This document shows positions 22,698 through 50,271 of a stretch of DNA of 59,105 nucleotides, one piece after another. Both the position numbers and the translations under genes were made by a program. Location: positions 13,297-72,401 of the forward strand of contig CAZHST010000014.1 of assembly GCA_964535215.1 (NCBI GenBank). Direction: 5' to 3'. This DNA comes from an uncultured bacterium (GTDB taxonomy: Bacteria; Methylomirabilota; Methylomirabilia; Methylomirabilales; JACQHM01). Within the stretch, counting starts at the first letter, position 1. The number at the start of each line of letters is the position of its first letter. The notes under the pieces were generated by a model, which worked only from the letters and a program-made list of their open reading frames with translations, was not told the DNA's origin and searched no databases.

Positions 22698-22828
22698 CCT
22701 CCTTGACCGGGGAAAGGGGAACTTGCTATCGTAGGTGCGTTTGCCAACCCTTTTCCAGGTTCCCCGGGTTGATCCGGTTTGTTGGGTTCCTGGGGACCGG
22801 GTCAGCCCTGGGAGGACGGAGGTGTCTG

Positions 22829-23749: not shown

Positions 23750-23774
23750 CCTTTCCCCTGGGGCGCGCTGGAGA

Positions 23775-26443: not shown

Positions 26444-26456
26444 CTCGCGTGAACCG

Positions 26457-27263: not shown

Positions 27264-27282
27264 CGTCCTCCCGCATCCCTTC

Positions 27283-29077: not shown

Positions 29078-29089
29078 GGCAAAGACCTC

Positions 29090-30103
29090 TTACGGGCGTG
29101 AGAGGGCAGGGACCCTTCGCTTCACGTAGCCGTTCTCCACGAACCACCGGACGGCCTTCTCCAGGGCCTCCTCGACAGGGGTCTGGGGCAGGCCCAGTTC
29201 CTTCACCGCCTTGGAGGCGTCGAAGAACATATACCTCTTGGCCATCTTGACCCCCTCCAGGGGGATCAGGGGTGGGCGCTTTGTGATCCAGTCGGCGATC
29301 CCCTTGTTCATGTAGGCGAGGGGGAGGACGGCCCAGTATGGGAGCTTCAGGGTAGGGGCTTTCAGTCCCGTGATCCGGGAGAGGATGGCGAAGATCTCGT
29401 GGAGGGTCAGGTTCTTGTGGCCGAGGATGTATCGCTCTCCCACCTTTCCCCTCTCGGCGGCGAGGAGGTGACCTTCCGCCACGTCATCCACGGCAATCAG
29501 GTTCAGGCCGGTGTCGAGGTAGCCGAACATCCTGCCGTTTAGGAAATCCACGATCAGCTTTCCGGTTGGGGTAGGCTTGACATCCCTTGGCCCGACGGGG
29601 GTGCTGGGATTGACGATGACAACGGGGAGATCTTCGTTGGCGAAGCGGCGGGCGACCTCCTCGGCGAGGAATTTCGATCGTTTGTAGTGCCCGATCATGT
29701 CTTGAAGAGAGACCGGGGTCTCTTCCGTTCCAGGGCCTCCTTCCCTGGGGAGCCCAAGGACCCCGACGGTGCTGGTATAGACGACCCGGGCGACCCGGGC
29801 CTTCCGCGCCGCCTCCAGGATGTTCTTCGTCCCCTCAACGTTCGTTTCGTAGAGCTCCCGAGGGTCGGGGGCCCAAAGCTTATAGCACGCCGCCACATGG
29901 TACAGTCGGTGACAGCCGTCCAGGGCCCTGTCCAGGGACCTGGGGTCCCGCAGGTCGCCTTGAACGCTCTCTACCCGGAGCCCTTGGAGGTTTCGAAGAT
30001 CGGAGCCCGGTCGAACGAGGACCCGGACGGCTTCCCCCCGTTTAAGGAGGTGGAGGACGACGGCCGATCCGACAAAGCCGGTGGCCCCTGTTACCAGGTT
30101 CAT
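29090..30103 (-). CDS. hpnA: hopanoid-associated NAD-dependent sugar epimerase/dehydratase (HpnA-like)
   Basis: MNLVTGATGFVGSAVV Rossmann motif, YxxxK SDR-extended signature, full-length HpnA-like. Confidence 0.75.
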   Translation of the reverse strand: MNLVTGATGFVGSAVVLHLLKRGEAVRVLVRPGSDLRNLQGLRVESVQGDLRDPRSLDRALDGCHRLYHVAACYKLWAPDPRELYETNVEGTKNILEAARKARVARVVYTSTVGVLGLPREGGPGTEETPVSLQDMIGHYKRSKFLAEEVARRFANEDLPVVIVNPSTPVGPRDVKPTPTGKLIVDFLNGRMFGYLDTGLNLIAVDDVAEGHLLAAERGKVGERYILGHKNLTLHEIFAILSRITGLKAPTLKLPYWAVLPLAYMNKGIADWITKRPPLIPLEGVKMAKRYMFFDASKAVKELGLPQTPVEEALEKAVRWFVENGYVKRRVPALSRP

Positions 30104-30117
30104 GGTCCCTGCGGCTC

Positions 30118-31149
30118 CTAGAAACGATAGTCCAGGTTTGTGAAGATGGTGACGTCGGCATCAGCCCCTGGGCTGTTGAAGACATCCTCGGCGGCCCCCA
30201 CCTGCCAGGAAAGGTCTCTGGCGAGCCTGACGTTCAGGCCGAGGACCACTTCCAGGAGCTCCCGATCGAAGATCTTGTTCCCCACGTTCCTGAAGGGCCT
30301 CGTCGCCGCGTCCAGTTGGAGGACGGCCGAGAGCCGGGGGGAGAAGCGGTACTCGACGGCGATGGCCCCGGAGAAGAAGGGACCAAAGTCCAGACCGGAG
30401 AACCTTTCAGGTTTGAAAGGGACCACAAGGCTCCCGTTGACGTAGAGGATGAAGGGCCCCACCCCTTTTTCCACGATCACGCCAAAACCTAGGTCAGGCT
30501 CGCCGCTACTGAAGGCCAGGTCGGGATCCCCTGTCGGGATCTTGATCCCCACCCGGGCTGTCACCGCCGGGAGGTACCTCTGCTCCTGGAGGATCTCCCC
30601 TTTCACCCGGAGGACGAGGTCACCGGGGCTTAGAACATGGTCGTTCTTGTCGAAGAGGGAGACGCCATCTTTCCGGATATCAAATGTCACGGTGAAGTCG
30701 GGGAACTCTTCTCTGCGGCGCCTGAGCTTGGCCTCCGCGCCGAAGGCCCGCTCGACACCCCTGATGATCTGATCCAGGAAGCCCCCGGAGATGTAGTAAA
30801 AGGGAACCTCCAAACCGACTTCGAACCTGTGGCCAAGGCCGTAGGCCACGTTCAGATCGATCCTCGTCATCTCCAGGTCGAGGGTGGCATCGATCCCCCC
30901 TCCCTTCTTTTGAAGGAGGACATTGGTCTGGGAGAGGGCCAGCCGGACATCCCCTTTCCCCTTTGGGAGGACCGTTGCCTGTTCCGCGTCGAAGCCAAGG
31001 AACAGGAGCTGAAGGGGCTGTTGGTTCCTAATCGCCAGGGGACCGGCACGGACCCCGGACTCCTGAACGTCGTCGGTAAAGCCAGCGGTCGATGTGGCAA
31101 GCAGGAAAGTAAGGACCCAGGGGAACGCTGTCCAAAAACGTTTGGGCAT
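30118..31149 (-). CDS. putative outer-membrane beta-barrel protein (secreted)
   Basis: Signal peptide MPKRFWTAFPWVLTFLLATSTAG, alternating amphipathic strands, C-terminal ...NLDYRF aromatic terminus. Start placed at the Met preceding the signal peptide. Confidence 0.5.
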   Translation of the reverse strand: MPKRFWTAFPWVLTFLLATSTAGFTDDVQESGVRAGPLAIRNQQPLQLLFLGFDAEQATVLPKGKGDVRLALSQTNVLLQKKGGGIDATLDLEMTRIDLNVAYGLGHRFEVGLEVPFYYISGGFLDQIIRGVERAFGAEAKLRRRREEFPDFTVTFDIRKDGVSLFDKNDHVLSPGDLVLRVKGEILQEQRYLPAVTARVGIKIPTGDPDLAFSSGEPDLGFGVIVEKGVGPFILYVNGSLVVPFKPERFSGLDFGPFFSGAIAVEYRFSPRLSAVLQLDAATRPFRNVGNKIFDRELLEVVLGLNVRLARDLSWQVGAAEDVFNSPGADADVTIFTNLDYRF

Positions 31150-31157
31150 CTTGCACC

Positions 31158-32156
31158 TTAGGACATGTTCCAGCGGATCATGGTCCACAGATCCTTCCAA
31201 CTCTTCCCCAGGGCTCGGACGGCCGAGGCCTCGAAGCCGGAATGCATCATGCAGTTCTGGCAGCGCCGATCCCTTCGGGACTCCCAATAATCCCAATCAA
31301 CTCCCCGCCAGAACTCCTCCCAGGTTTTAAAGTATTTCTCCCCGATCAGGTAGCAGGGTCCCTTCCAGCCCAGAGGGGTATAGGTGACGGTGCTCCACGG
31401 GGAACAGGGATAGTCGCGCAGGCCGGCGGCGAACTCGAGGAACATCGGGGTGGAGGTCAACCGGTATCGCTTGGACAAGTCCAGCACCTGCCTGAACTTT
31501 CGATGGATGTCCTGGCGGGTCAGGAAGATGTTCCGATCTACGGACTCGTAATGGTAACCCGGGGAGATCAGCATCCCGTCCACCCTCAGGTCGTGGAGCA
31601 GCTCGCAGAGCTTCTCTACCTCGTTGATATCGGTCTCCTTAAAGACCGTGGTGTTGGTCATCACGTGATAGCCGAGACGCTTCCCTTCCCTGATCATGGC
31701 GATGGCTTTCTCAAAAACCCCATCCCGATCGCAGACGTAGTCGTGGGTGTGTTTCAGCCCATCCAGATGGACGTTGATGGTCAGTCTCTTGTGAGGGGGG
31801 ATGACGCCATAGACCTTCTTGTCAAGCAGGAGACCGTTGGTGCACAGGTAGATGTGCCGCTTCCTGGCGATGATTCCTGCGATTAACTCCCTTAGCTCCG
31901 GGTAGATGGTCGGCTCACCGCCGCAAATGGAAACGGCGGGTGCTCCGCACTCGTCTACCGCCTTGAGGCATTGCTCAACCGTTAACCGGTCTTCCAGCTT
32001 CCCCGTATGCCGCTCCAGCGCACAGCCCAGGCAGGCCAGGTTGCAGGTGTAGAGCGGTTCAAGCATTAAGACGAAGGGATAGCGTCGGTTACCTTTCAAC
32101 AGGTTTCGGATCTGGTGCTTCACCATACCCGTGGTGATATGCAGTGGAAACCGCAT
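31158..32156 (-). CDS. hpnH: hopanoid biosynthesis radical SAM protein HpnH (adenosylhopane synthase)
   Basis: RYPFVLMLEPLYTCNLACLGCA CxxxCxxC cluster followed by HTGKLE, collinear with HpnH. The start may be 48 nt further upstream (32204). Confidence 0.8.
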   Translation of the reverse strand: MRFPLHITTGMVKHQIRNLLKGNRRYPFVLMLEPLYTCNLACLGCALERHTGKLEDRLTVEQCLKAVDECGAPAVSICGGEPTIYPELRELIAGIIARKRHIYLCTNGLLLDKKVYGVIPPHKRLTINVHLDGLKHTHDYVCDRDGVFEKAIAMIREGKRLGYHVMTNTTVFKETDINEVEKLCELLHDLRVDGMLISPGYHYESVDRNIFLTRQDIHRKFRQVLDLSKRYRLTSTPMFLEFAAGLRDYPCSPWSTVTYTPLGWKGPCYLIGEKYFKTWEEFWRGVDWDYWESRRDRRCQNCMMHSGFEASAVRALGKSWKDLWTMIRWNMS

Positions 32157-32212
32157 CCCCAAGCTCCCATCCACCGCTGACGTCCGCAGGTCATCGGCAG
32201 TCAACGTCTGGT

Positions 32213-33256
32213 TTACCGGTCTTCAAGGCCTTTCGGCTCGGACCCGCCTAAGGGCCTGTTATCCCTCGTGGGGCAACCCCAGCCCCTCACCTCATAGTGG
32301 GTGAGCGCCAACAGGCCAAAGCCCACCCATAAAAGCTCCCGTCCCCTCCGGACCAGGCTGAAGGTCATCGCGGCCTCGGAGGGGAGGGAGAACGCGAGAA
32401 AGATGAGGACGTTCCCTCCTTCCTGGAGGCCAAGGCTCCCCGGGATGAAGAAGGCGGCAGCCTTGGTGAGCGTTGAAAGGGCTTCAATGGCGACGGCCGT
32501 GGAAAGCCTAACGGGTATCCCGAGGAAGGCGAGGAGGAAGTAGACTTCTAAGCTGCCGATCATCCATCCTGAGAAGAAGAAGGTAAACGAGGTCGTGAAG
32601 GACCACCGGTTCTTCAGGTAGAAATCGGCGATCATCCGATCGAGGGAGCCAAGCTCCGCCTCCCGCTTTTCCAAAGGTGGGAGCGAAAGCTTGACAGCCT
32701 TGGTGAGTTTTAAGAGGCCGGAGAAGAGGCCCCGTCGTTGGGCGAGGAGAAAGAGGGCGATGGCCGGGATCCCCGTCGCCGTTAGGGCCATCGAGGCCAC
32801 GATGAAGGGACCCCCGGCCCCCCCTGGGCGGATGGCCATGAGCAATCCTAGGACGATGAAGACCAGATGGGCCATGGCCATAATGGTCTTGGTCACCACC
32901 AGCGAGGCAAGGCCCTGGTCCTGGGGAATCCCCTGCCGGTTCAGGAGATAGGCCTTTAACGGTTCCCCCCCGAGGGAGGCCAGGGGGGTTAGGTAGTTCA
33001 GAGCCTCCCCAGCCATCCTGATGGAAAAGATCGTGGAGGCGGGGATGGAGCGGGCCTTTGTCCCCAGCACACACCTCCACCCGAGAGTGTCAAAGATATA
33101 CACCATGAGGTACGGTGTGAGGAGGATCGGCAACCTCCAGCCCAACCGTTTCAGACGGGAGAAGAGGATGCCTGGGCCTGTCTGGAAGATCAGGAAGGCA
33201 AAGAGGGCAATCCCGATGACCAGGAAGAGTAAGGTGACTTTCTTAGGGGGCCTCAT
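32213..33256 (-). CDS. HpnL-like flippase-like membrane protein (UPF0104 / lysyl-PG synthase TM-region family), copy 1
   Basis: 347 aa, about 8 TM helices. The N-terminus LLFLVIGIALFAFLIFQTGPGILFSRLKRLGWRLPILL is typical of UPF0104. First gene of the long leftward hopanoid operon. Confidence 0.6.
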   Translation of the reverse strand: MRPPKKVTLLFLVIGIALFAFLIFQTGPGILFSRLKRLGWRLPILLTPYLMVYIFDTLGWRCVLGTKARSIPASTIFSIRMAGEALNYLTPLASLGGEPLKAYLLNRQGIPQDQGLASLVVTKTIMAMAHLVFIVLGLLMAIRPGGAGGPFIVASMALTATGIPAIALFLLAQRRGLFSGLLKLTKAVKLSLPPLEKREAELGSLDRMIADFYLKNRWSFTTSFTFFFSGWMIGSLEVYFLLAFLGIPVRLSTAVAIEALSTLTKAAAFFIPGSLGLQEGGNVLIFLAFSLPSEAAMTFSLVRRGRELLWVGFGLLALTHYEVRGWGCPTRDNRPLGGSEPKGLEDR

Positions 33257-33506
33257 CCAAGAATTCCCCCCGAGGAGAGGGCCGTCGTCCCCGAAGGATC
33301 GGGGTGACAGCTCCCGTGATCTCAGAGAAGCTCCAGGGGTGCATCACCGAACACCGATTGTGGTCAATTCTTCGAGAAGTGTCAAGCGAAAAGGGCATCC
33401 GGTGGCGTTGGTCACCCCTTATATAGCATATTGATCAGCGAAGGACAAGCCGTTAAGCACCTCACCCGTAAAGGCGACGGGGAGGGACGTCGGCTGGCAT
33501 TTCCGT

Positions 33507-33535
33507 TTGACAGCTCCGCCGGGCAACGGTATCAT
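33507..33535 (+). promoter_or_regulatory. predicted sigma70-type promoter for the decarboxylase genes
   Basis: TTGACA – 17 nt – TATCAT in a roughly 300 nt intergenic region, about 30–45 nt upstream of the candidate start codons. Confidence 0.35.
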
Positions 33536-33562
33536 AGCGTTCATGGACGGGGCTTGTCGGCC

Positions 33563-34072
33563 ATGACAGGGGAAGACATGCAGGGTGGGGCAAAACGGTT
33601 CGTGGCCCTCCTGGAGGCGGCGGGCTTCAACTTCTTCACAGGGGTCCCCTGTTCCCTCCTTGAAGGCATCCTGGCCGTTCTGGAGAGACACCCCCGCCTC
33701 CCCTACATCCCTGCCGTCCGGGAGGATGCGGCGGTCGGGATGGCGAGTGGAGCGTTCCTGGCCGGGAAACGGCCGGTTGTCCTTATGCAGAATTCCGGTC
33801 TCGGCACATCCTTAAATGCCCTGGTCTCCTTGAACCTCCTCTACAAGATCCCGCTCCTCCTGGTGGTAAGCTGGCGGGGGTATCGGGGGAAGGATGCCCC
33901 TGAACACCTCATCATGGGGGATGTGTCGCCTCGACTTCTGGAGGATCTCAGCCTGCCCTACCTTGCTCTGGACGAGGAGAAGTTGGAGGACGCCCTCTCC
34001 TGGGCGAAAGGGGTGCTGGAGGGGCAGGGGCTCCCGGCAACCTTCCTCGTCCGTCCCGGGGTCTTACGATGA
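33563..34072 (+). CDS. TPP-dependent phosphonopyruvate/sulfopyruvate decarboxylase, alpha subunit (ComD/Ppd N-terminal half)
   Basis: FVALLEAAGFNFFTGVPCSLLEGIL...MQNSGLGTSLNAL is the TPP-enzyme N-terminal (pyrimidine-binding) domain. Start chosen at the internal ATG; an ATG at 33578 is also possible. Confidence 0.65.
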   Translation: MTGEDMQGGAKRFVALLEAAGFNFFTGVPCSLLEGILAVLERHPRLPYIPAVREDAAVGMASGAFLAGKRPVVLMQNSGLGTSLNALVSLNLLYKIPLLLVVSWRGYRGKDAPEHLIMGDVSPRLLEDLSLPYLALDEEKLEDALSWAKGVLEGQGLPATFLVRPGVLR

Positions 34073-34644
34073 CGAGAGCCGAGGCCATCCGACTGATCGT
34101 TTCCCACCTCACCCATGAGCTGGTTGTCCACGCCAACGGGATGATCTGTCGGGAATCCTTCACCGTCCGGGATCGGCCTGAGAATTTCTACATGATCGGG
34201 TCCATGGGGTTGGCCTCCTCCATCGCCTTGGGAGTTGCCCTCTGCCGTCCCGATCGGAGGGTGGTCATCTTCGACGGGGACGGAAACGTCCTGATGAACC
34301 TGGGAGGCGTGGCGATGGTCGGTGCCCTCCAGCCGAAGAACCTGGTCCATGTCGTCTTCGACAATGAGGCTTATGGTTCCACGGGGGGGCAGGCCAGCCT
34401 TTCCAAGCACCTCCCCCTCCAGGAGATCGCAAGGGCTTCCGGCTACCGGTGGGCCGGGCGGGTTGAGGATCAGGAGGCCCTCGTCACGACCGTTCGAAAG
34501 CTTCTCAATTCGGAAGGTCCTTCCTTCCTCCTGGTCAAGGTCTCCCTTCATGAGGAGGAGGGGATCCCGCGGGTCTCCCATCCCCCTGAGGTGATCCGTG
34601 ACCGCTTCATCGCCGCCCTTCAGGGGACCGGCGTTGGGGGTTAG
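34069..34644 (+). CDS. TPP-dependent phosphonopyruvate/sulfopyruvate decarboxylase, beta subunit (ComE/Ppd C-terminal half)
   Basis: GSMGLASSIALGVAL...VIFDGDGNVLMNLG is the TPP diphosphate-binding GDG motif. It overlaps the alpha subunit by 4 nt. Confidence 0.65.
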   Translation: MTRAEAIRLIVSHLTHELVVHANGMICRESFTVRDRPENFYMIGSMGLASSIALGVALCRPDRRVVIFDGDGNVLMNLGGVAMVGALQPKNLVHVVFDNEAYGSTGGQASLSKHLPLQEIARASGYRWAGRVEDQEALVTTVRKLLNSEGPSFLLVKVSLHEEEGIPRVSHPPEVIRDRFIAALQGTGVGG

Positions 34645-34667: not shown

Positions 34668-35660
34668 CTATCCCACCTCTGACCTTATCCGTTTGAGGCC
34701 ATAACGGGCCAGCGTGGCGAGACCTAGGCTGACCCAGAAAAGCTCCCTGCCCCGTCTCACCAAGCTGAACGTCATCCCTGCCTCCATGGGAAGGGAGAAG
34801 CCAAGGAAGATCAGCATATTCCCCCCCTCTTGGGCTCCTAGAGCTCCTGGGATGACGAAGGCTACGGCTTTGGTGAGGACCGAGAGACCTTGGATAGCAA
34901 AGGCCGTCGGAAGGTCCACGGGCAGCTTTAGAAAGGAGAGCAGCAGGTAGACCTCCAGGCTCTGAACCATCCAACCACCCAGGTGGAACCCCCAGGAGAG
35001 GAGAAAGCTTCGGGCATCTTTGGTGTAAAAGGCGGCGATCTGACGGTCCAGGCTCCGGATCCGTTCCTCCCACCGCTGGAGCCGGGTCTTCAGGAAGGTT
35101 ACGGCTCTGGCAGGCAAGAGAAGCCAGGTGAACAGGCCCTGTCGCTGGAGCACAATCAAGAACGCCATGGCGGGGATCCAAGCGAGGATCAGCACGACTG
35201 AAAAGGTGAGGAAGGGGCTCTTTGCCCCTATCTGGTGTATGGCCAGGATGATCCCGATGACGGTGAAGGTCATCTGGGCCAGGGTCATGGCGGTCTTGGT
35301 GACGACGACAGAGGTCAGGCCCTTCTCAAGGGGGATCTCGTGGGATTTTAGCAAATACGCCTTGACCGGCTCGCCTCCAAGGGAGGCTGAGAAGGTCAGG
35401 TAGTTTACGGCCTCACCGGCCGCTCGGATAAGAAAGAGCCTTGAAAACGGGATTGATGCGCCATCCGCCAACGTCACTCTCCACCCCAGGGTAAAGAAGA
35501 AATAACCGAACGCATACGGCAGGAGGAGGAGGGTCAGCTTCCAGCCCAGGGCCCGAAGGTGGAGGGCGATGGTCAAGGGACCGACCCGGTACACGAGGAA
35601 GGCAAACAAGAGAAGGCCGAGGCTTAGCACCAAAACGTTTAGGGTCTTCGTCTTGATCAC
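34668..35660 (-). CDS. HpnL-like flippase-like membrane protein (UPF0104 family), copy 2
   Basis: Paralog of 32213-33256 with the same N-terminal pattern VLSLGLLLFAFLVYRVGPLTIALHLRALGWKL. It overlaps the upstream fusion gene by 4 nt. Confidence 0.6.
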   Translation of the reverse strand: MIKTKTLNVLVLSLGLLLFAFLVYRVGPLTIALHLRALGWKLTLLLLPYAFGYFFFTLGWRVTLADGASIPFSRLFLIRAAGEAVNYLTFSASLGGEPVKAYLLKSHEIPLEKGLTSVVVTKTAMTLAQMTFTVIGIILAIHQIGAKSPFLTFSVVLILAWIPAMAFLIVLQRQGLFTWLLLPARAVTFLKTRLQRWEERIRSLDRQIAAFYTKDARSFLLSWGFHLGGWMVQSLEVYLLLSFLKLPVDLPTAFAIQGLSVLTKAVAFVIPGALGAQEGGNMLIFLGFSLPMEAGMTFSLVRRGRELFWVSLGLATLARYGLKRIRSEVG

Positions 35661-36994
35661 GGCCTTGGTCCTTGGGCTTTCTCGGAGCGCCGACGGGCCT
35701 TAACCCTTCTCCGGAAGGCAGCGTAGAGGACGAGGGGCCAGAAGAGATTTGTCCCGATGGCCCCAACCCAGAAGAACCAGTGGATCTTGTTCACAACCGC
35801 GAGGAGGAGGAAGAGGAGGGAGAAATCCCGGTGTCTGATCGCCTCGACGATCCCCTCAAGCCTTCGATCGAGGTTTTCTGTCTCCCCGGGCCCTCCACTC
35901 CTGGTCTTGGGGCCCATCATGTGGAGGGTAAAGGCCAGACCGGAAAGGAGAGTCCCTCCTATCAACAGGATCCCGAAGGTAAGGACCTGCCAGCTGGGGG
36001 AGCGGAGGTAGACGACCCGGGTGAGACCCGCGAAGATCCCCAGATGGACGGCGTTATCCAGGATGAAGTCCAACCACCCTCCCCCTCGGCTTTCCAGGAA
36101 CTTGATCCGGGCCAGCATCCCGTCCGCTAAGTCCATCACGAAGGAAAGGACGAGGAGAAGGGCCCCTGTCAGGACGCTGGCATACCCAGCCTGCCACAGG
36201 AAGGCGGCGGCCGCTATCCCTGAGAGGAAGCTGAGGAAGGTAAGCTGGTTGGGGGTGGCTTGAGTCTCGACGAGGGCCTTCACCACCAGGGCCGCCACCT
36301 TCCGGGTCTCTCGGATCACGATGGTGTCGGTTGGCTTTCCCAAGGAGCGGTATAACGCCCTCTCGGCTTCGTCAGTCGGGAGGGAAGAGGTGTCAAAGAC
36401 GTAGGCGTATTCGTCTGGGAGGGTCAGAAGGTACTTTCGGTGGTCCTTGAAGGTCAGGAGGAGCTCTTCCCATCCCTTTGGTCCTTCCCGGTCCAGGGCT
36501 TCGGCGATGAGGCGTATGATCCGTGAGGAGACCAGGGCGATCCCGTGATGGCCTTCCGAGGCCCCCCGGGCAGGAATCAGAATGTCCAGATCCTCTTCAA
36601 AGGCGGCGTGCATCCGTTCCAGCACGACGGGGGCAAAGATCGTCCCCCCATCGAGCAGGAACACTGGGGGTCGTTCCTCTTCCAACCACTCCTCTAGGGT
36701 TCCCCCTTGGGGGTGGAGCGGAGGACAGAACCATGAGACCTGGGCCTTGATCCCGGACCTCTCCGCCAGGAGGGTCTGGAGCTTGGGGGTCTCAGGTCCC
36801 GAGAGGACAAGGAACCGGTGAACCCCCGCTCGTTGTGCCGCAAGGATGATCCTGATGAAGACAGGCACCCCGGCTAACGGGTGGAGGGCAGGGGTCCAGT
36901 CCCCTCCTGGGGGGGGAACGATCAGGGCTGAGAGGGTGATCGCTTTCATAGCGCTCTTCCCCGTTCCCGATCCACGGGGTGGGCGTTTGTTCAC
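35657..36994 (-). CDS. bifunctional nucleotidyltransferase-like / CDP-alcohol phosphatidyltransferase fusion protein
   Basis: The N-terminal roughly 230 aa is an NTP-transferase-like fold (LHPLAGVPVFIRII) with a degenerate Gly-rich loop (IVPPPGGDW). The C-terminal membrane domain carries the CDP-OH-P transferase signature DLADGMLAR...GGWLDFILDNAVH (D-G-x2-A-R...G-x3-D-x3-D). Confidence 0.65.
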   Translation of the reverse strand: MNKRPPRGSGTGKSAMKAITLSALIVPPPGGDWTPALHPLAGVPVFIRIILAAQRAGVHRFLVLSGPETPKLQTLLAERSGIKAQVSWFCPPLHPQGGTLEEWLEEERPPVFLLDGGTIFAPVVLERMHAAFEEDLDILIPARGASEGHHGIALVSSRIIRLIAEALDREGPKGWEELLLTFKDHRKYLLTLPDEYAYVFDTSSLPTDEAERALYRSLGKPTDTIVIRETRKVAALVVKALVETQATPNQLTFLSFLSGIAAAAFLWQAGYASVLTGALLLVLSFVMDLADGMLARIKFLESRGGGWLDFILDNAVHLGIFAGLTRVVYLRSPSWQVLTFGILLIGGTLLSGLAFTLHMMGPKTRSGGPGETENLDRRLEGIVEAIRHRDFSLLFLLLAVVNKIHWFFWVGAIGTNLFWPLVLYAAFRRRVKARRRSEKAQGPRP

Positions 36995-37141: not shown

Positions 37142-37170
37142 TTGCGAGAATGGGGGCGGGTTGCTACAAT
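37142..37170 (+). promoter_or_regulatory. predicted sigma70-type promoter for hpnN
   Basis: TTGCGA – 17 nt – TACAAT. AGGGGGGGAA follows, then a GTG at 37204. Confidence 0.35.
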
Positions 37171-37203
37171 CTTTTACCTGAAACGCCGTCAGGGGGGGAA
37201 ATC

Positions 37204-39987
37204 GTGCTGGTCCGGTTCCTAAAGTTCATCTATCGGCATCCGCGAAGTGTCATCGTTGTCTCTCTGGCAGTAGCCGTCGTCTCTGTCCTCTATGCCGCGA
37301 CCCACTTGAGCTTTAAGACCAGCCGCCTTGACCTCGTTTCCTCCAAGGACAGGTATAGCCTGCTCCACCGGGAGCATAGCAGGGAGTTTGAGTCCCTGGA
37401 TCGGATTGTCATTGTGGTTCAAAGCCATCATCCAGAGCGGGCCAAGGCCTTCGCCAGCCTGTTGGGAAGACGGTTGGAGGCGGACAGGGAGGATTTCGAA
37501 AAGGTCTTTTATCGAATCGACATCGAACCCTTGAAAAACAGAGGCCTCCTTTACCTATCCGCTGACGACCTCCTCGCCCTCAGGCGGAAGCTCCAAAGGC
37601 ATGCGGAGCTGATCAGAGACCTGGCCGCCTCCCCCACCCTCCCCGGCCTCTTCTCCCTGATCAATCGGGAGATGACCTCGGCGATGATCAGCCATACCTT
37701 CACCGGTTTCTTGCTGGAGGAGGAGCAGGGGGGGGAAAAGGAACCTGTTGATCTCGGCCTGCTGATCTCCATCCTGAGAGCGATGGACGAGTGGGTTGAG
37801 GGTCAACACGCCTACGTCTCCCCCTGGGAGGCCTTTTTCACCAAGGAGAAGTGGAAGACATCGGAGGATGGGTTCCTCTGGTCAGAGGATAAGACGTTTC
37901 TCTTCCTCCTGGTCACCCCCCGGCAGGTCTCCGGGACCTTCGACCGGTTCAGGAAGGCCGTTGAGCGTGTCCGGCAGGAGGTCCGGGAGCTTCGCAAAGC
38001 TTTTCCAGACCTCGAGGTCGGGGTCACGGGGCAATCGGTCCTGGATTCGGATGAGATGGGGGCGGCCCAGCGGGATACCGCCATGGCGGCTTTGATCTCC
38101 CTCGTAGGGGTCGGGCTTCTCTATTTCGTCATGTTCAGAGGGGTCATGAGACCCCTCTTCGCCCTCGTGACGCTGGTCATTGGTCTGGGCTGGTCCATCG
38201 GCTTCACCGCCCTGACGGTGGGGCATCTGAACATCATCACCATGACCTTTGCGCCGCTTTTGATCGGCCTGGGGATTGATTACGGCAGCTACTTTATCGG
38301 TCGGTACATGGAAGAGAGGATGCCAGGGGTTGGGGTGCCTTTCGTCATGGAGCGGACCACCGCTGCCGTTGGGCCGGGGATAGCGGCGACCGCCCTCATC
38401 ACCGCGTTCTCCTTCTTCACCCTCGTCTTCACCGACTTCAAAGGTCTGGTCGAGCTGGGCTTCATCAGCGGGACCGGCATCCTCCTCATCCTGCTCGCCA
38501 CCTTCACGGTTCTTCCGGCGTTCCTCATCCTCTATGATGGCCGGAGAGGGGCAACCTTCGATCTCCGCGGAATGAGGGGCGGTGAGGCCCGCTCCGGCTA
38601 CCTGGAAGGGCTGTACCGCTATCCGCTGGTCACCCTCTCGGCGAGTGCCCTCCTTGTCCTCCTTTCCCTCGCGTTTCTCGGGAGGGTTGGGGCTGACTTT
38701 AACCTCCTCCACATGCAGGCCGAAGGGACCGAGTCCGTTGTCTGGGAGCTTAAGATCCTGGAGAACGCCAAGCGGTCGGCCTGGTTTGCGGTGAGCGTCG
38801 CCGACTCTCTGGAGGAGGTGAGGCGAAGGGAGAAGGCCTTTAAGGCCCTTCCTTTGGTGGCAGGGGTCCAGAGCCTTGCCTCCCTGATCCCTCAGGACCA
38901 GGAGCGGAAGCTCCGCCTTCTCAAAAGCCTCCGTCCCTTCCTGGCCGATATCCCCATCCCTCAGGTCAAGCCCGGGCCCCTGGACCTGGAGGTCCTCCTG
39001 TCCACCTTGGAGAGGATCAAGTTCAAGATGGTAGAGGATGGTGGCGAAACCTGGGACCCCAGGAAGAGGCCACCCGTGGAGGCGATGCGTGAGGTGCGCC
39101 GCCTCATTGACCAGTTCTTAACATGGGCCAAGCAAACGGAGCCTGAGGAAGTCCATCGGGCCCTTCAAGGGTTCGAGAGGGAGATTTTCGGGGACTTGAA
39201 GGACAAGCTGGATTTCCTGAAACGGGGCCTCGACGCCGGACCGGTAACGCTCCAGACCATTCCCCCTGAGCTTAAGGAGCGCTTCGTGGGCAGGACGGGA
39301 AGGTACCGGGTATTGATCTTTCCCGCCGAGAACATCTGGGAGCCTGAGCACCTGGCGAAGTTCGTCCGGGCGATCAGGGCTGTGGACCCTGATGCCATCG
39401 GTGATCCGGTCCTGGGCTTTGAGCACATGCAGGCGATGAAGACGGCCTACAAGAAAGCCGGGTTGTATTCGGTCGTCGGTCTCCTCCTCCTGGTCTTTCT
39501 CACGTTTAAGGAGGTGAAGGCTTCCCTCTTGGCCCTGATCCCTTTGGTCCTTGGTTCCCTGTGGACCTTAGGCTTCATGGGGGCCTTTCAGGTGAAGTTC
39601 AACCTGGCCAACCTTATCGTCCTCCCCTTGATAGGGGCTCCTGGGATCGAAGGTGGCATCATGGTCCTCACCCGTTACCGCGAGGAGAGGACCACCAGGA
39701 AGCTCCCCCTTCCCCTCCCCAAGAGCACCGGGAGGGCCATGGCGTTCTCGGCCTTGTCCACGATGGTCGGATTCGGGAGCTTGATGATCTCCCGCCATCG
39801 GGGGATTTACAGCATCGGCCTCCTCCTCATGGTTGGGGTGGGGTGTATCCTCCTGGCTTCCGTCACCGCCCTTCCTGCCGTCCTGCGACTCCGCTTATCA
39901 AAGCAGGCGAAGGTTTCGGGGGAGGATCAAGAGATGCCTCAAACCGTTGGGGCCAAGGAAGGAGGCTGGAAAGGCAGGGGGGGGTAA
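37204..39987 (+). CDS. hpnN: hopanoid-associated RND-superfamily (MMPL-like) transporter HpnN
   Basis: About 927 aa with two 6-TM bundles (the sterol-sensing-like GxxxD..., second bundle near 39480-39900) and two large periplasmic loops. GTG start after the RBS; the upstream ATG at 37150 lies inside the predicted promoter. Confidence 0.7.
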   Translation: MLVRFLKFIYRHPRSVIVVSLAVAVVSVLYAATHLSFKTSRLDLVSSKDRYSLLHREHSREFESLDRIVIVVQSHHPERAKAFASLLGRRLEADREDFEKVFYRIDIEPLKNRGLLYLSADDLLALRRKLQRHAELIRDLAASPTLPGLFSLINREMTSAMISHTFTGFLLEEEQGGEKEPVDLGLLISILRAMDEWVEGQHAYVSPWEAFFTKEKWKTSEDGFLWSEDKTFLFLLVTPRQVSGTFDRFRKAVERVRQEVRELRKAFPDLEVGVTGQSVLDSDEMGAAQRDTAMAALISLVGVGLLYFVMFRGVMRPLFALVTLVIGLGWSIGFTALTVGHLNIITMTFAPLLIGLGIDYGSYFIGRYMEERMPGVGVPFVMERTTAAVGPGIAATALITAFSFFTLVFTDFKGLVELGFISGTGILLILLATFTVLPAFLILYDGRRGATFDLRGMRGGEARSGYLEGLYRYPLVTLSASALLVLLSLAFLGRVGADFNLLHMQAEGTESVVWELKILENAKRSAWFAVSVADSLEEVRRREKAFKALPLVAGVQSLASLIPQDQERKLRLLKSLRPFLADIPIPQVKPGPLDLEVLLSTLERIKFKMVEDGGETWDPRKRPPVEAMREVRRLIDQFLTWAKQTEPEEVHRALQGFEREIFGDLKDKLDFLKRGLDAGPVTLQTIPPELKERFVGRTGRYRVLIFPAENIWEPEHLAKFVRAIRAVDPDAIGDPVLGFEHMQAMKTAYKKAGLYSVVGLLLLVFLTFKEVKASLLALIPLVLGSLWTLGFMGAFQVKFNLANLIVLPLIGAPGIEGGIMVLTRYREERTTRKLPLPLPKSTGRAMAFSALSTMVGFGSLMISRHRGIYSIGLLLMVGVGCILLASVTALPAVLRLRLSKQAKVSGEDQEMPQTVGAKEGGWKGRGG

Positions 39988-40035: not shown

Positions 40036-40776
40036 TCAGGACCCCTCGTCCAGCTTTCTCCCCAGGGCCCTTGCCTGCTCCAGTTCTTCCGGCGTGTCAA
40101 TGTCCATCCAGGGAAGCCCCCCGGTGAGGGAATAGCCGACCGGGACCCCCCGGGCGATCAAGGCTTCAATGGCTGCCGTGAAATAGAGATCCGTTCTCGC
40201 CTGCTGGATGAATCCTCTCATCTCCTCAAAGAAGAGGCGGCTGCCTCGTCCTGAGAATCTGGCGATGCCGATGAAGGTTCCCGTGGCTTCACCGGGGAGG
40301 ATGGATTTGCTGACGGCGGTGATCCGGTCCCCTTGGGAGGTCACCTTCATCGTCTCCCCGAGGATCTCGCGATCAATGACCAGGCAGATATCTCCTGGAA
40401 ATGCCAGGCATCCAGGGAGGATCGCCTTGTGAAAGAGGACATCGGCATGGAGGATGAAACAGGGCAGGCCTTCCACTTGCTCCCGCGCGATCCATGCTGA
40501 ATAGAGATTGTTGGTCTCGGCGTAGAGAGGGTTGTGGAGGAGGGTAAGGCGAAAGGGGTAGCGGCGAGCAGCCCTAGCGGCAAAGCGGTGGATGGCATCA
40601 GCCCGATGGCCGGTGACGATCAGGACCTCGGCGACTCCCGATCCCGCCAGGGCGTCAAGTTGGTATTCCAACAGGGACCTTCCCCCAACATCCAAAAGGC
40701 ACTTCGGCGTGTCGGCCGTCAGCGGGTGAAGCCTGGTGGCCCTCCCCGCTGCGAGGATCAGGGCCTTCATGACCAC
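40036..40776 (-). CDS. sugar-/phosphobase nucleotidyltransferase (LicC/PntC-like cytidylyltransferase family)
   Basis: MKALILAAGRATRLHPLTADTPKCLL is the canonical GxGxRL nucleotide-binding loop. Confidence 0.7.
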   Translation of the reverse strand: MVMKALILAAGRATRLHPLTADTPKCLLDVGGRSLLEYQLDALAGSGVAEVLIVTGHRADAIHRFAARAARRYPFRLTLLHNPLYAETNNLYSAWIAREQVEGLPCFILHADVLFHKAILPGCLAFPGDICLVIDREILGETMKVTSQGDRITAVSKSILPGEATGTFIGIARFSGRGSRLFFEEMRGFIQQARTDLYFTAAIEALIARGVPVGYSLTGGLPWMDIDTPEELEQARALGRKLDEGS

Positions 40777-41094
40777 CTCCCAAAGCTTAGAGACCTGTCA
40801 GGGGGGTCCCATCTTATGTACCACGGTTTTGCCGAAAAGCAAGGAAAAAATCCCGGGTCGAGGATCGGAGGCGTTTGACAAACCCCCGGGCCTACGCTAT
40901 CATGCTCCCCGATCTCCAGTCCCATGGCATTTTTTGAACCATGGGGCCCCAGCCGACGTATCTGGAGGGAGGGAACAATCTGGGAAGAGGTGGTGTTCTG
41001 TAAGGGAGGGGTGGGTCAGCCTGGGAGGCCCATGGAGGGGGAGCGAGCCGGTGGGATTTATCATCGGGGTCCCTGGTTCCGAAAGGAGGGTTCG

Positions 41095-42501
41095 ATGAAC
41101 TGGAGGCGAGGACCGAGGGTGGTGCTAGGACTCCTGGGAGCTTTTGGGCTCTTTGCCTTTCCCCCTCCCCTGAAGGCGCAAGAGGTGCCGAGAACAGGGA
41201 CGGTCATCCTTGACCTCAAGCAGGCCATTGAAATGGCGGTCATGACAAGCCCTGACATCAAGCGGGTGCAGGCGGGTGTGGACGCTGCCCAGGCCAAGAA
41301 GGATCAGGCCGATGCCGGACGACTCCCCCAGTTCGAGTTCACGAGCGTCTTGGGCCCCTCGCCCGAGGCCCGGGTCTTCACCACGGAATTGGGCGATGTC
41401 CGATCAACCGATCGAACGGACCGGCCAACCATCAACGGGATCTTCGGGCGGAGTGACTTTACGTTGATCCAGCCCTTGTACACCTTTGGTAGGATCTCGG
41501 GGCTCCGGGAGGCCGCCGGCCATGGGGTTCGGGTCGAGCAGGCGCGGGTGGAAGAAAAGACCTCGGAGGTCATCTTGAAGGTCAAGGAGGCCTATTACAG
41601 CCTCCTCCTCGGGATGGAGCTCCAGAACCTCCTCCTCGATATCCAGGAGCAGTTGGAGCGGGCCCTGGAGAAGGTGGAACGGATCCTGGAGGCTGGGGCG
41701 CCCGGGGCGGATGAGGTGGATCGGTACAAGCTCAGGACCTTCCGGGGGGAGCTTCAGCGGAACCTGAATGAGGTGGCGAAGGTGATTGATGTGGCCACCG
41801 CCGGGCTCAAGACCTTGACCGGCTTGGCGCCCGATCAGGTGGTCGAGCCAGCGGTGAAAACGCTGGAACCGGATCCCAGGCCCGTCCCTCCTCTCGAGCA
41901 GGCCCTTAAGGAGGCCCAGGAGCGGCGGCCGGAGTTCGTTCAGATCCGCGAAGGCCTGTTGGCCACCCAGGCCTTGGTGGCGGCCGCGAGGGCAGAACGC
42001 TATCCCCAGCTGTTCATGGCCGTCACAGGTTCCGTGTCCCGGGCCACCAACCGTACCCCCCTCACCAACCCGTTCGTCTTCGACGAGCTGAATCATACGG
42101 TGGTAGTCCCGCTGATCGGCTTCAAGTGGCACTTCGACTTCGGCATCCTTGCCGGCAAGGTTCGAGAAGCCCAGGCCGAGCATCAGAAGGTGGTTCACGC
42201 CAAGGAACTGGCGGAGCAGGGGGTCCCCTTTCAGGTGAGAAAAGCCTACCGGGAGCTGGAGGAGGCCCGGCAGAGCATCAAGGCGACGGAGGAGGCGTAT
42301 GCCAACGCGAGGAGGTGGCTGGTGGCCGCGGTGGCCAACTTCGATTTGGGCGTGGGCGAGGCCAAGGAGGTAGCCGATGCCCTTGTCGCCTTCGTCAAGA
42401 TGCGGGCGGAGAATTTCAAGGCGATCTTTAACTACAACATGGCCCTTGCCGCCCTGGACCAGGCGACCGGCAAGGCCGTCCAAGAAGTGGGAAGACCCTG
42501 A
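41095..42501 (+). CDS. TolC-like outer membrane efflux protein
   Basis: Signal peptide MNWRRGPRVVLGLLGAFGLFAFPPP, two OEP repeats with coiled-coil segments. RBS GAAAGGAGGG upstream of this ATG; the longer ORF from 40924 is unlikely. Confidence 0.7.
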   Translation: MNWRRGPRVVLGLLGAFGLFAFPPPLKAQEVPRTGTVILDLKQAIEMAVMTSPDIKRVQAGVDAAQAKKDQADAGRLPQFEFTSVLGPSPEARVFTTELGDVRSTDRTDRPTINGIFGRSDFTLIQPLYTFGRISGLREAAGHGVRVEQARVEEKTSEVILKVKEAYYSLLLGMELQNLLLDIQEQLERALEKVERILEAGAPGADEVDRYKLRTFRGELQRNLNEVAKVIDVATAGLKTLTGLAPDQVVEPAVKTLEPDPRPVPPLEQALKEAQERRPEFVQIREGLLATQALVAAARAERYPQLFMAVTGSVSRATNRTPLTNPFVFDELNHTVVVPLIGFKWHFDFGILAGKVREAQAEHQKVVHAKELAEQGVPFQVRKAYRELEEARQSIKATEEAYANARRWLVAAVANFDLGVGEAKEVADALVAFVKMRAENFKAIFNYNMALAALDQATGKAVQEVGRP

Positions 42502-42561
42502 GGGGAAGGCAACGGGGGAGGCGTGGCTCCGGGAACACGGGGAGAGAGGAGGTTTTTGAGG

Positions 42562-43197
42562 ATGGGACGACGATGGGGGCACACCAAGAGGATGGCTTGG
42601 GCAGGGTCCTGGTTGGGGATCCTCTTCCTGGCTCAAGGGTTCCTTTCCACCGCCGTGGCCGGGGAACCCTTGGAACAGGTCAAGGCAACCCTGGAGGCTG
42701 CTTCGGCGATCCTGGGGGACCCGAAGCTTGCTGGGCCGGAAAAGGAGGAGGAGCGGAGGGAGGCGGTCAAGAAGATCATCTTCGATCGCTTTGATCTTCG
42801 GGAGATGGCGGCCCGCTCCCTGGGGGATCAGTGGGCCAAGCTGACCCCATCCCAACAGGAGGAGTTTGTCCAGGTCTTTGGCGACCTCTTCCAAAGGTCC
42901 TACACCCGCCTGGTGCTCAGGTTTCTCCCGGAAAGGCGGACCCTTTATGGGCAGGAGAGGCTGGATGGGTCAACGGCCCTGGTGAAAACGACCCTGGTCA
43001 GTCAGCGGAACGAGCGGTTGCCGGTTGATTACCGACTCATCAAGAAGGGGCCCCGGTGGGCCTTTTTCGACGTGATCATTGATGGGGTCAGCATCGTTGG
43101 GAACTATCGAACCCAGTTCAGCAAAATTATCCGAAACTCCTCCTATGAGAGCCTCGTCCGCCGCATGAAACTCAAACAGGAACAGGAGTCCTTTTAG
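42562..43197 (+). CDS. MlaC/Ttg2D-family lipid-binding periplasmic protein (HpnM-like)
   Basis: Signal peptide, then IIFDRFDLREMAARSLGDQWAKLTPSQQEEFVQVF...FFDVIIDGVSIVGNYRTQF, the toluene-tolerance Ttg2D/MlaC fold. Next to the hpnN/TolC genes. Confidence 0.65.
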   Translation: MGRRWGHTKRMAWAGSWLGILFLAQGFLSTAVAGEPLEQVKATLEAASAILGDPKLAGPEKEEERREAVKKIIFDRFDLREMAARSLGDQWAKLTPSQQEEFVQVFGDLFQRSYTRLVLRFLPERRTLYGQERLDGSTALVKTTLVSQRNERLPVDYRLIKKGPRWAFFDVIIDGVSIVGNYRTQFSKIIRNSSYESLVRRMKLKQEQESF

Positions 43198-46373: not shown

Positions 46374-46390
46374 GCCACCCGGAGGGGGAA

Positions 46391-50059: not shown

Positions 50060-50271
50060 AAGATACCCTATGATACTTCAGGGGTCCTGGTCGGACAAGC
50101 CTTTTTCGAGTCCCCGTTCTGCCGAGGCAACACCCCGGGCTCCCCGAGACCTCGGGAAACGGGAGAACCCCGGCGATCCCCTGGGTTTTTCCGGAGAATT
50201 TGCTTGACCTTTTTTCGGGATTTCATCTATAAAAAAACTAATGCAAGGGTTTGGTCGTTGGTGTTCAAGCG

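Follow-up and report, generated by a model that had tools for sequence, protein, structure and literature searches.

The fusion gene and its two domains

The stretch of DNA considered here (the window) comprises 59,105 nucleotides of contig CAZHST010000014.1 (assembly GCA_964535215.1, positions 13,297 to 72,401 of the forward strand) from an uncultured bacterium assigned to Methylomirabilota. Its minus strand carries at 35657-36994 an open reading frame (ORF), hereafter the target, predicted to encode a cytidine diphosphate (CDP)-alcohol phosphotransferase (CDP-AP) of the AF2299 type with an N-terminal pseudo-nucleotidyltransferase domain. Read from its GTG codon the ORF specifies 445 amino acids (aa), and residues are numbered accordingly throughout. 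The in-frame ATG at 36949 is the likelier start, because it is preceded by GGGGAAGAG and because the database copy P0001, an identical protein of 430 aa, begins there; the probable coding sequence on the minus strand is then 35657-36949. Since a homologue search with the single protein returned relatives with E-values from 8e-284 to 1e-68, the target is evidently a real gene. An artefact of assembly or gene calling was rejected as the origin of the fusion, as the full-length architecture recurs in hundreds of sequence clusters.

The N-terminal cytosolic domain (residues 16-215, encoded at 36350-36949 on the minus strand) has a nucleotidyltransferase (NTase) fold of the GT-A-like alpha/beta type, from which the catalytic consensus is absent. 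It is followed on the same strand, at 35660-36349, by a linker (AE..LYRSLGK), a juxtamembrane helix and a six-helix CDP-AP domain, delimited by the Pfam family PF01066, the match to AF2299 and the model helices. The first-pass annotation of this DNA had proposed exactly such a fusion of an NTase fold with a CDP-alcohol phosphotransferase, and Pfam, an AlphaFold2 model and Foldseek all agree with it. CDP-OH_P_transf (PF01066) matched residues 247-358 with 33.5 bits against a cut-off of 22. NTP_transf_3 matched residues 36-173 with 18.1 bits, below its cut-off of 27, and the match began only at profile position 17, skipping the Gly-loop. With this sub-threshold score and without the consensus the N-domain falls outside the sugar/alcohol-phosphate nucleotidyltransferases (NTP_transf_3/NTP_transferase) and belongs to nucleotidyltransferases at the level of fold only. 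The AlphaFold2 model was built on 13 homologues (mean pLDDT 76, pTM 0.70); by Foldseek it was closest to the bifunctional enzyme IPCT/DIPPS (4mnd, E 1.8e-13) and to AF2299 (E 2e-12, TM-score 0.72-0.75), with soluble NTases following at about 1e-5. Structure prediction thus recovered an NTase fold and not an unrelated one.

Members of the NTase superfamily share the consensus GXG(T/S)RX4-8PK. Its opening five residues, a conserved Arg among them, make up the pyrophosphate site, and its terminal Lys is essential in FrbH and YgbP (PMC6697681). At this site the target reads PPPGGDWTPALHPLAG, with both Arg and Lys missing: the canonical Gly-loop is replaced, as had been noticed at first reading, by IVPPPGGDW (36896-36922, minus strand), and the downstream PK by ALHP. 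A mere shift of the Gly-loop was ruled out, as no GXGxR is found within residues 16-60 of the target or in any relative, and the pattern occurs in no member of alignments A2 (30 N-domains) and A3 (39 full-length proteins); the full consensus is likewise missing from all of the 39 and 75 family members aligned. The stretch after beta-4, which is the acidic HADV in intact NTases, reads LDGGT in the target and varies across the family in the profile alignment; judged by eye from that alignment, the acid of the 'hhhhD' motif also appears to be lost. When 75 N-domains of the family were compared profile to profile with the adjacent intact NTases (E 4.9e-5, probability 68%), the alignment began at the PK position and left the catalytic loop unaligned. 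Within the NC10 clade (36-76% identity) PPxGGDW is kept, and the family N-domain as a whole conserves LLGLPLxRR..LAA.RAGF with invariant G42 and R48 (A2, A3). Because the replacement motif is conserved in its clade and the consensus is absent throughout the wider family, the degeneracy of the loop is not a matter of chance decay.

The C-terminal domain is of another kind. Its signature D288LAD291G292MLA295R296(x8)G305GWLD309FILD313 corresponds to the pattern D288xxD291G292xxA295R296x8G305xxxD309xxxD313 and places it among class I CDP-alcohol phosphotransferases (PF01066); together with the AF2299-type IKFLES loop between transmembrane helices 2 and 3 (TM2-TM3) it is encoded at 36056-36133 on the minus strand (translation DLADGMLARIKFLESRGGGWLDFILD). 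Across the family none of the eight signature residues varies (alignments A1, A3). Helices of the model were found at 248-268, 271-298, 305-331, 335-360, 374-400 and 404-440, with a juxtamembrane helix at 225-242, and the predicted six transmembrane helices are not followed by extra C-terminal ones, as in AF2299. By these residues the six-helix domain is shown to carry a complete predicted phosphotransferase centre.

The AF2299-type family

Word-indexed homologue searches were shallow, with 15 matches for the single protein and 18 for a profile. An exhaustive hidden Markov model search over 1.84 billion representatives (E<=1e-30, clusters at 50% identity) gave 771 family clusters, mostly of 380-450 aa and matched end to end. 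Against PDB the family profile found AF2299 of Archaeoglobus fulgidus (4o6m, 4o6n, 4q7c) as its best match with E 1.3e-42, compared with 9e-26 for IPCT/DIPPS, and the alignment to 4o6m spanned the linker through TM4; the target as a single sequence matched AF2299 with E 1.2e-15 (Foldseek TM-score 0.75). AF2299 follows the same plan, a cytidylyltransferase-like cytosolic N-domain before a six-helix CDP-AP, and is alike to the target in the N-domain motif LLGL.L..R....RAGF (in AF2299 GEKLLGLTLRERIEKTLQRAGFD), in the linker AE..LL.SL.K (in AF2299 LKTAEKLLLSSLIKA) and in the TM2-TM3 loop ARLKFxES. In the family alignments the conserved forms are AE..LLRxLVK for the linker and ARLKFxES for the catalytic loop, to which AERALYRSLGK and ARIKFLES correspond in the target. 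The two proteins differ in that AF2299 is archaeal, shares only ~20% identity with the target and has an N-domain of ~135 aa against ~200 aa.

Several properties of AF2299 described in a structural paper on phosphatidylinositol-phosphate (PIP) synthase (PMC4634129) bear on the role of this domain. It was already termed 'cytidylyltransferase-like' there; Leu and Phe of the TM2-TM3 loop are buried in it, and CDP-glycerol is held in a small hydrophilic donor pocket. The same work grafted the domain onto foreign PIP synthases as a crystallisation chaperone, leaving their activity unchanged. According to a further account, the N-domain of solved relatives partly covers the substrate pocket (PMC8633023). 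The target keeps the TM2-TM3 loop in the form I297-K298-F299. We infer that its N-domain descends from a bifunctional ancestor of the IPCT/DIPPS kind, has lost the catalytic role and serves as a structural cap, in other words that it is a pseudo-cytidylyltransferase deprived of donor synthesis. Very probably the target is an AF2299-type enzyme with a non-catalytic N-domain. Since the degeneracy of the loop was found family-wide it is not peculiar to the target, on which alone the first-pass annotation had laid emphasis; it represents the ancestral condition within a large family.

The same annotation had likened the architecture to IPCT/DIPPS (PDB 4mnd; NCBIfam NF041135). The resemblance holds in that both polypeptides unite an NTase-fold domain, a linker and a six-helix domain in this order, but AF2299 is the closer relative by the profile comparison. 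NF041135 itself scored 59.4 bits on the target against a cut-off of 580, and only over residues 217-351. The IPCT part is a working cytidylyltransferase with GXGTR...PK, in place of which the target has PPPGGDW...ALHP, and IPCT/DIPPS uses two soluble inositol phosphates as substrates. The scanned ORFs of the window included no myo-inositol-phosphate synthase, and the genomic context points to a phosphonate donor and not to inositol phosphate.

A scan of genomes, one per species, gave 155 relatives, and 80 of their loci were kept; L numbers below denote individual loci. Their ORFs were clustered all against all; a mega-cluster of spurious ORFs from high-GC DNA was discarded and clusters 1-3 were used. 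An intact NTase lay near the CDP-AP gene in 56 of the 80 loci, a Gfo/Idh/MocA oxidoreductase in 51 and a class III aminotransferase in 49. A gene similar to hpnL, coding for a flippase-like protein with an LPG_synthase_TM domain, was nearby in 55/80, or in 45/54 if only loci of at least 15 kb are counted. Hopanoid genes occurred within 10 kb in 20 of the 80 loci, and in L013 and L038 the cyclase directly adjoins the CDP-AP locus. Three predicted natural fusions were found: P0182 (636 aa) joins the pseudo-NTase and CDP-AP domains to an intact NTase that reads AAGRGSRL...PK, P0287 (742 aa) joins them to LPG_synthase_TM, and P0148 (768 aa) is a tandem double module.

One widespread operon among L008-L083 (for example L013 5929-11212 and L025 10756-14749) consists of an NTase (GGIIAAGEGSRLR), a class III aminotransferase, a Gfo/Idh/MocA protein and a CDP-AP of the AF2299 type, and an HpnL-like gene lies close to it. 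Its hosts belong to Acidobacteriota, Alphaproteobacteria, Rokubacteria, Nitrospirales, Elusimicrobia and others. Hopanoid genes adjoin roughly one in four of these loci, and the composition of the operon suggests an amino-alcohol or aminocyclitol phosphate head group. In an NC10 relative with 73% identity two paralogous AF2299-type modules are adjacent (L004 1-10448): one comprises the target orthologue and an HpnL-like gene, the other a Gfo/Idh/MocA protein, a class III aminotransferase and an HpnL-like gene of its own.

Phosphonate and hopanoid genes in related loci and in the window

More distant NC10 homologues (36-38% identity; L002, L090, L005-L007) belong to an operon packed on one strand in the order HpnH-(small ORF)-HpnG-NTase-CDP-AP-(unknown)-PpdA-PpdB-HpnL-like-HpnA, where PpdA and PpdB are subunits of phosphonopyruvate decarboxylase (Ppd). 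The protein that comes after the CDP-AP in L002 and L005-L007 has 286 aa and is absent from the window; in L090 (4558-5994) it is fused to the Ppd alpha subunit. Phosphoenolpyruvate (PEP) mutase fused to an NTase domain (PepM-NTase) joins the set elsewhere. In L084, whose CDP-AP has 46% identity to the target, one operon contains PepM-NTase, the orthologue of a membrane protein encoded in the window at 43241-44470, an NTase, the CDP-AP and an LPG_synthase_TM protein, and the PepM-NTase is 76% identical to that of the window (48323-50059). In L086 (Nitrospira sp. Kam-Ns4a) PepM-NTase is divergent from PpdA, PpdB, a class V aminotransferase that represents 2-aminoethylphosphonate (AEP) transaminase (AEPT), an NTase, a CDP-AP of 475 aa with the same dead N-domain architecture and LPG_synthase_TM; the arrangement of L092 is similar. 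The Ppd subunits of the window are 54% and 49% identical to those of L086 and 48% and 39% identical to Roseomonas aepY. This orthology to the AEPT/PepM-linked enzyme of Nitrospira and to aepY ruled out sulfopyruvate decarboxylase, which gave similar scores, as the identity of the split thiamine-pyrophosphate enzyme.

Both hopanoid and phosphonate genes accompany a CDP-AP on plasmid p1318-3 of Roseomonas marmotae (L088; NZ_CP061094.1 11816-41378), a 430-kb plasmid of a culturable host, in the order VacJ, MMPL, polyprenyl synthase, NTase, aepX(-NTase), aepY, LPG-synthase-domain protein, AEPT, a CDP-AP of 200 aa, ispH, hpnH, hpnG, shc, hpnE, hpnD, hpnC, glycosyltransferase and hpnA. In Burkholderia multivorans (L089) a CDP-AP of 226 aa is grouped with a dioxygenase, an HpnL-like protein, NTase, PepM-NTase and Ppd. 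In tblastn searches against plasmids the target and its Nitrospira homologue gave no match, and the PepM query alone reached the Roseomonas and Burkholderia records. Since the short CDP-APs of these two organisms fill the same slot, the N-domain would be dispensable for the pathway.

If the N-domain is dead, the activated donor must come from elsewhere, and two intact neighbouring NTases had been named as its possible source. For one of them this was supported. The stand-alone enzyme at 40036-40776 (minus strand) resembles LicC (1jyk, E 9e-16), PntC (6pd1, E 6e-9) and IPCT (2xme, E 2e-7) and keeps Thr, Arg and PK of the consensus in a near-canonical loop (GRATRLHPLTADTPK); an NTase gene abuts the CDP-AP gene in L002, L003, L005, L006, L084 and L090. 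The other, the NTase domain of the PepM fusion (48323-49120, minus strand), proved to be non-canonical: it reads AAGFEKELLPLIKDRPK, so that PK is kept and the second Gly and the Arg are lost. Such a state is usual for these proteins, as AAGFE or AAGVD stands in place of GXG(T/S)R in 119 of its 120 nearest PepM-NTase homologues, and LAASAGDVGDPGQPK in the Roseomonas fusion. Of the three NTase-fold domains in the block a single one is thus near-canonical. The non-canonical loop of PepM-NTase may explain why clusters of this kind carry a second, canonical NTase. Because of the conserved synteny, the fusion P0182 and the short CDP-APs without N-domain in Roseomonas and Burkholderia, the donor is most likely supplied in trans by the putative cytidylyltransferase at 40036-40776.

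In the window itself the target sits in a 28-kb block between dnaB (20304-21728) and radA (50251-51654), where hopanoid and phosphonate genes are mixed. Nearest to it is the gene of an HpnL-like flippase-like membrane protein (34668-35660, minus strand; LPG_synthase_TM 105 bits, TIGR03476 155.3 bits), whose GTG start codon shares nucleotides with the TGA that ends the target (GTGA), an arrangement implying that the two are translationally coupled. Its paralogue at 32213-33256 (minus strand) scored 113 bits with LPG_synthase_TM and 181.0 bits with TIGR03476. Both are below the HpnL cut-off of 195.65 and are best called HpnL-like members of LPG_synthase_TM. Between them, on the plus strand, lies the split phosphonopyruvate decarboxylase (33431-34644), the alpha (33431-34072) and beta (34069-34644) genes overlapping by 4 nt, a split also seen in Nitrospira, and matching TIGR03297 with 126 and 194 bits. 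Divergently from the target, across a 200-bp gap, starts the gene of an HpnN-like hopanoid transporter of the resistance-nodulation-division (RND) type (37150-39987, plus strand), which scored 629 bits with TIGR03480, below its cut-off of 751.85. OEP (40924-42501) and an MlaC-like protein (42523-43197) are encoded on the plus strand, and the PEP mutase fusion on the minus strand at 48323-50059 (Pfam; TIGR02320 282 bits, cut-off 319.55). The 409-aa conserved membrane protein without family assignment at 43241-44470 (minus strand) has only a weak LiaF-TM match, but its orthologue with 61% identity stands between PepM-NTase and NTase in L084, and relatives occur near AF2299-type genes in L018, L027, L041, L060 and L075; probably the protein belongs to the module as an additional part.

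Hopanoid biosynthesis occupies 21732-32204 on the minus strand (Pfam and NCBIfam), with squalene synthase (21732-22874), HpnG (23775-24575), squalene-hopene cyclase (24551-26443), polyprenyl synthase (27283-28230), HpnA (29090-30103) and HpnH (31158-32204). Between the polyprenyl synthase and HpnA genes of this series, at 28196-29077 (minus strand), an ORF of 293 aa takes the same position as a 293-aa ORF in L001; it has no Pfam or NCBIfam match, and lowering the Pfam threshold to E<=1 gave nothing useful for it, for 43241-44470 or for L002 11262-12122. Within the same block a DUF6282/amidohydrolase-like ORF (22703-23749, plus strand) has a listed start that overlaps the opposite-strand squalene synthase by ~170 nt. 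A glycosyltransferase of family 4 (GT4), a radical S-adenosylmethionine (SAM) protein and a PIG-L deacetylase (45051-48294, plus strand) take the place of the canonical trio HpnI (GT2), HpnJ and HpnK (YdjC), and may supply glucosaminyl or cyclitol-ether hopanoids by a non-orthologous route. The best NCBIfam matches of the GT4 were GlcNAc-phosphatidylglycerol synthase and MshA; the radical SAM ORF as listed (from 45758) overlaps the GT4, its true start being probably near 46370. At the window edge a CHASE2-adenylate/guanylate cyclase-PilZ fusion (51-2180, plus strand) is unrelated to the target.

Proposed function and comparison with known systems

Based on synteny and natural fusions one can assume the following pathway. 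PEP mutase (48323-50059), the entry to the C-P bond, and the split decarboxylase (33431-34644) would yield phosphonoacetaldehyde, to be converted by an enzyme encoded outside the window into a small phosphonate, for which 2-aminoethylphosphonate or something closely related is most likely. The LicC/PntC-like enzyme (40036-40776) would activate it with CTP to CMP-phosphonate, from which, at the cytoplasmic face of the membrane, the CDP-AP domain would move the phosphonyl head group to a lipid hydroxyl. The HpnL-like protein, a flippase-like protein of the MprF type, would shift the product to the outer leaflet, and HpnN and Mla-like proteins may carry it outward to the outer membrane. The N-domain would cap and stabilise the TM2-TM3 catalytic loop (I-K-F) like its AF2299 equivalent and may also dock a partner enzyme. 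As a whole, a CMP-phosphonate:lipid-alcohol phosphotransferase with a non-catalytic cap domain is our best explanation of the target, and we hold it to be rather probable. Its parts are not equally firm. A CMP-phosphonate as donor has slightly more than an even chance, owing to the grouping of PepM-NTase with NTase, CDP-AP and LPG_synthase_TM in L084, L086 and L092 and to the closeness of the window NTases to LicC and PntC. That the product is a lipid is argued by the GTGA overlap with the HpnL-like gene, by the frequency of HpnL-like genes in the loci (55/80) and by the fusion P0287. For the acceptor, diacylglycerol or another glycerolipid, as in a classical phosphonolipid, comes somewhat short of an even chance, and a hopanoid polyol (the bacteriohopanepolyol side chain), favoured by the position of the target inside a hopanoid operon, can be named only tentatively. 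The link to hopanoids comes from the NC10 operons, from the 20/80 loci with a hopanoid gene within 10 kb and from the Roseomonas module amid MMPL/VacJ and ispH-hpnH-hpnG-shc-hpnEDC. In its boldest and rather doubtful form the proposal makes the target the coupling enzyme of hopanoid-phosphonate clusters, which would transfer a CMP-activated AEP-like phosphonate onto a hydroxyl in the side chain of a bacteriohopanepolyol and give a phosphono-hopanoid to be flipped by the HpnL-like protein and exported by HpnN and Mla-like proteins.

A number of observations weigh against this proposal. The predicted enzyme has only six transmembrane helices; CDP-APs with lipid acceptors usually carry 3-4 extra ones, six-helix CDP-APs are said to use soluble acceptors, and both AF2299 and DIPPS are said not to process lipids (PMC4634129); no product of Group 1 phosphonolipid-type clusters has been characterised (PMC8942020). 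In the 59-kb window tblastn with the Nitrospira and Roseomonas AEPT gave no match at E<=0.01, and no homologue of class III aminotransferase, Gfo/Idh/MocA or alcohol dehydrogenase is present there. The window thus points to no particular phosphonate as the one to be activated. PepM is located 11 kb from the target and was not found within 10 kb in the NC10 clade with 36% identity. The structural model rests on 13 sequences and is of moderate confidence (mean pLDDT 76). Finally, the N-domain is under purifying selection, with invariant G42 and R48 and the clade-specific PPxGGDW, and therefore does something, a ligand-binding or regulatory role being possible.

This last point may be taken further, to an N-domain that is not a passive cap but a regulatory or ligand-sensing module, gating the transferase on binding, for example, CTP, CMP, CMP-phosphonate or the partner NTase. 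Ligand binding is often retained by pseudo-enzyme domains, this one is under purifying selection, and in solved relatives the domain partly covers the substrate pocket (PMC8633023). The phosphate-binding loop for a nucleotide is gone, however, and the AF2299 domain behaved as an inert chaperone on foreign PIP synthases (PMC4634129), so that gating, though not negligible, is unlikely. Much less can be said for a true bifunctional enzyme of the IPCT/DIPPS kind, whose N-domain would act through an unconventional PPxGGDW loop or on a different nucleotide. It could appeal to the retained full NTase fold, to the conservation of the loop in the NC10 clade with G42 and R48 invariant family-wide and to the homology of the linker with that of IPCT/DIPPS; but two essential consensus residues (Arg in GXGTR, Lys in PK) are missing, conservation of the loop does not extend to the wider family, family members have an intact NTase encoded beside them or fused to them, homologous modules run with short CDP-APs lacking the N-domain, and the NCBIfam IPCT/DIPPS model reached 59 bits of the required 580 on the C-domain only. 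The first-pass annotation had left three options for the N-domain, altered catalysis, regulation or another nucleotide; loss of catalysis is the one that the missing Arg and Lys support, regulation retains the small probability just given, and another nucleotide is very improbable.

The nature of the acceptor and donor allows two further departures. A soluble phosphodiester similar to compatible solutes (compare di-myo-inositol phosphate and diglycerol phosphate) could be made from a CDP-alcohol and a soluble phosphorylated alcohol, with no lipid involved. AF2299 and DIPPS, the closest solved relatives, have the same six helices and are described as not processing lipids (PMC4634129), the invariant R231 and R389 could bind the phosphate of such an acceptor, and the L084 operon has a HAD phosphatase gene next to it. 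The tight linkage to an MprF-type flippase-like domain, with coupled translation and even fusion, the embedding of the target in operons of hopanoid lipid biosynthesis and transport, and the classing of homologous Burkholderia-type clusters as phosphonolipid clusters (PMC8942020) speak against it and make it quite improbable. Even less probable is an ordinary phospholipid synthase of the PgsA/PIP-synthase kind, using CDP-diacylglycerol and placed near hopanoid genes by coincidence. NCBIfam models of archaetidylinositol-phosphate and PIP synthases did match at 38-56 bits, and JGI names P0137 and P0139 'phosphatidylglycerophosphate synthase', but the scores are far under the cut-offs of 170-180, the consistent partner of the family is not CdsA but an NTase for small molecules (LicC/PntC/IPCT type), the donor pocket of AF2299 is small and hydrophilic and holds CDP-glycerol (PMC4634129), and the co-location with hopanoid and phosphonate genes recurs in several phyla. 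The preferred reading remains the transfer of a phosphonate head group to a lipid.

The degenerate loop, then, is the normal state of a known but functionally orphan family, and the interest lies in the genomic context. The N-domain offers a clean case of a pseudo-enzyme domain retained structurally after catalysis moved to a separate gene. The target joins four questions, namely the reaction of the AF2299 family, whose clusters (at least 771) extend over many phyla, the function of HpnL, the products of Group 1 phosphonolipid clusters, the most abundant class of phosphonate gene clusters, and the speculated 'terpene-phosphonates'. The last were only surmised from antiSMASH-type calls for Nitrosococcus (PMC7285500; PMC8942020) and Roseomonas (PMC8776678), and HpnL is still listed as of unknown function, with no CDP-AP partner mentioned (bioRxiv 10.1101/2025.07.29.667474; PMC12583986). 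Our literature search found no paper tying AF2299-type enzymes to phosphonates or hopanoids. Phosphono-hopanoids are, to our knowledge, a lipid class never described. If they are real, a first function would be obtained for HpnL, for the AF2299 family and for the 'terpene-phosphonate' clusters of NC10, Roseomonas and Nitrosococcus; if the product is an ordinary AEP-glycerolipid, the gain would be a modest one, a corrected annotation of a large family. The comparative data define an expressible unit of three proteins, the NTase, the CDP-AP with its dead NTase domain and the flippase-like protein, and p1318-3 of Roseomonas marmotae provides a practical culturable system for the phosphono-hopanoid idea.

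Among known systems AF2299 is nearest in architecture, and it has been crystallised with CDP-glycerol as a functionally orphan protein, for which no phosphonate, hopanoid or HpnL-like context is reported. In gene content the nearest are the 'Burkholderiales_CDP-OH' or Group 1 phosphonolipid clusters, which have the same module of Ppm-NTase, Ppd, a second NTase, CDP-AP and an LPG_synthase_TM-like protein (Yu et al. 2013, summarised by Li et al. 2022, PMC8942020), as confirmed in Burkholderia multivorans (L089). The window has all five parts, scattered over 18 kb between hopanoid genes, and the set is contiguous in L084, L086 and L089. The Burkholderia CDP-AP differs in being short (226 aa) and devoid of the N-domain, and its cluster is not embedded among hopanoid genes and has AEP transaminase and a 2-oxoglutarate (2OG) dioxygenase in its core; in the window the ORFs scanned with Pfam gave neither an aminotransferase nor a 2OG-oxygenase domain. 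The hopanoid-phosphonate clusters of Roseomonas and Nitrosococcus (PMC8776678; PMC7285500) bring NTase, CDP-AP and an LPG_synthase-like protein together with an AEP module based on PepM, amid shc, hpnH, hpnG, hpnCDE, hpnA and MMPL, which was confirmed in p1318-3. They are unlike the target and its window in that the Roseomonas CDP-AP of 200 aa lacks the pseudo-NTase domain and AEPT is present.

Two further systems offer parallels in chemistry and in the order of events. LicC or PntC acting with LicD or with transferases of the CPT/EPT type proceed likewise in two steps: a small phospho(no)-amine is activated by CTP, and the phospho(no) head group is then passed to an alcohol. The window NTases are closest to LicC and PntC. 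The target departs from both LicD and the ten-helix proteins of the CEPT/CHPT type, being a six-helix enzyme of the AF2299 type whose NTase domain is dead. The transmembrane domain of MprF flips the lipid made by the MprF synthase domain. In both MprF and the unit proposed here a head-group synthase at the cytoplasmic face is coupled to an LPG_synthase_TM flippase domain, and in P0287 the two are fused as well. MprF works by aminoacyl-tRNA-dependent esterification, whereas the predicted reaction of the target is a CDP-alcohol phosphotransfer, and in the window the two functions reside on separate, translationally coupled genes.

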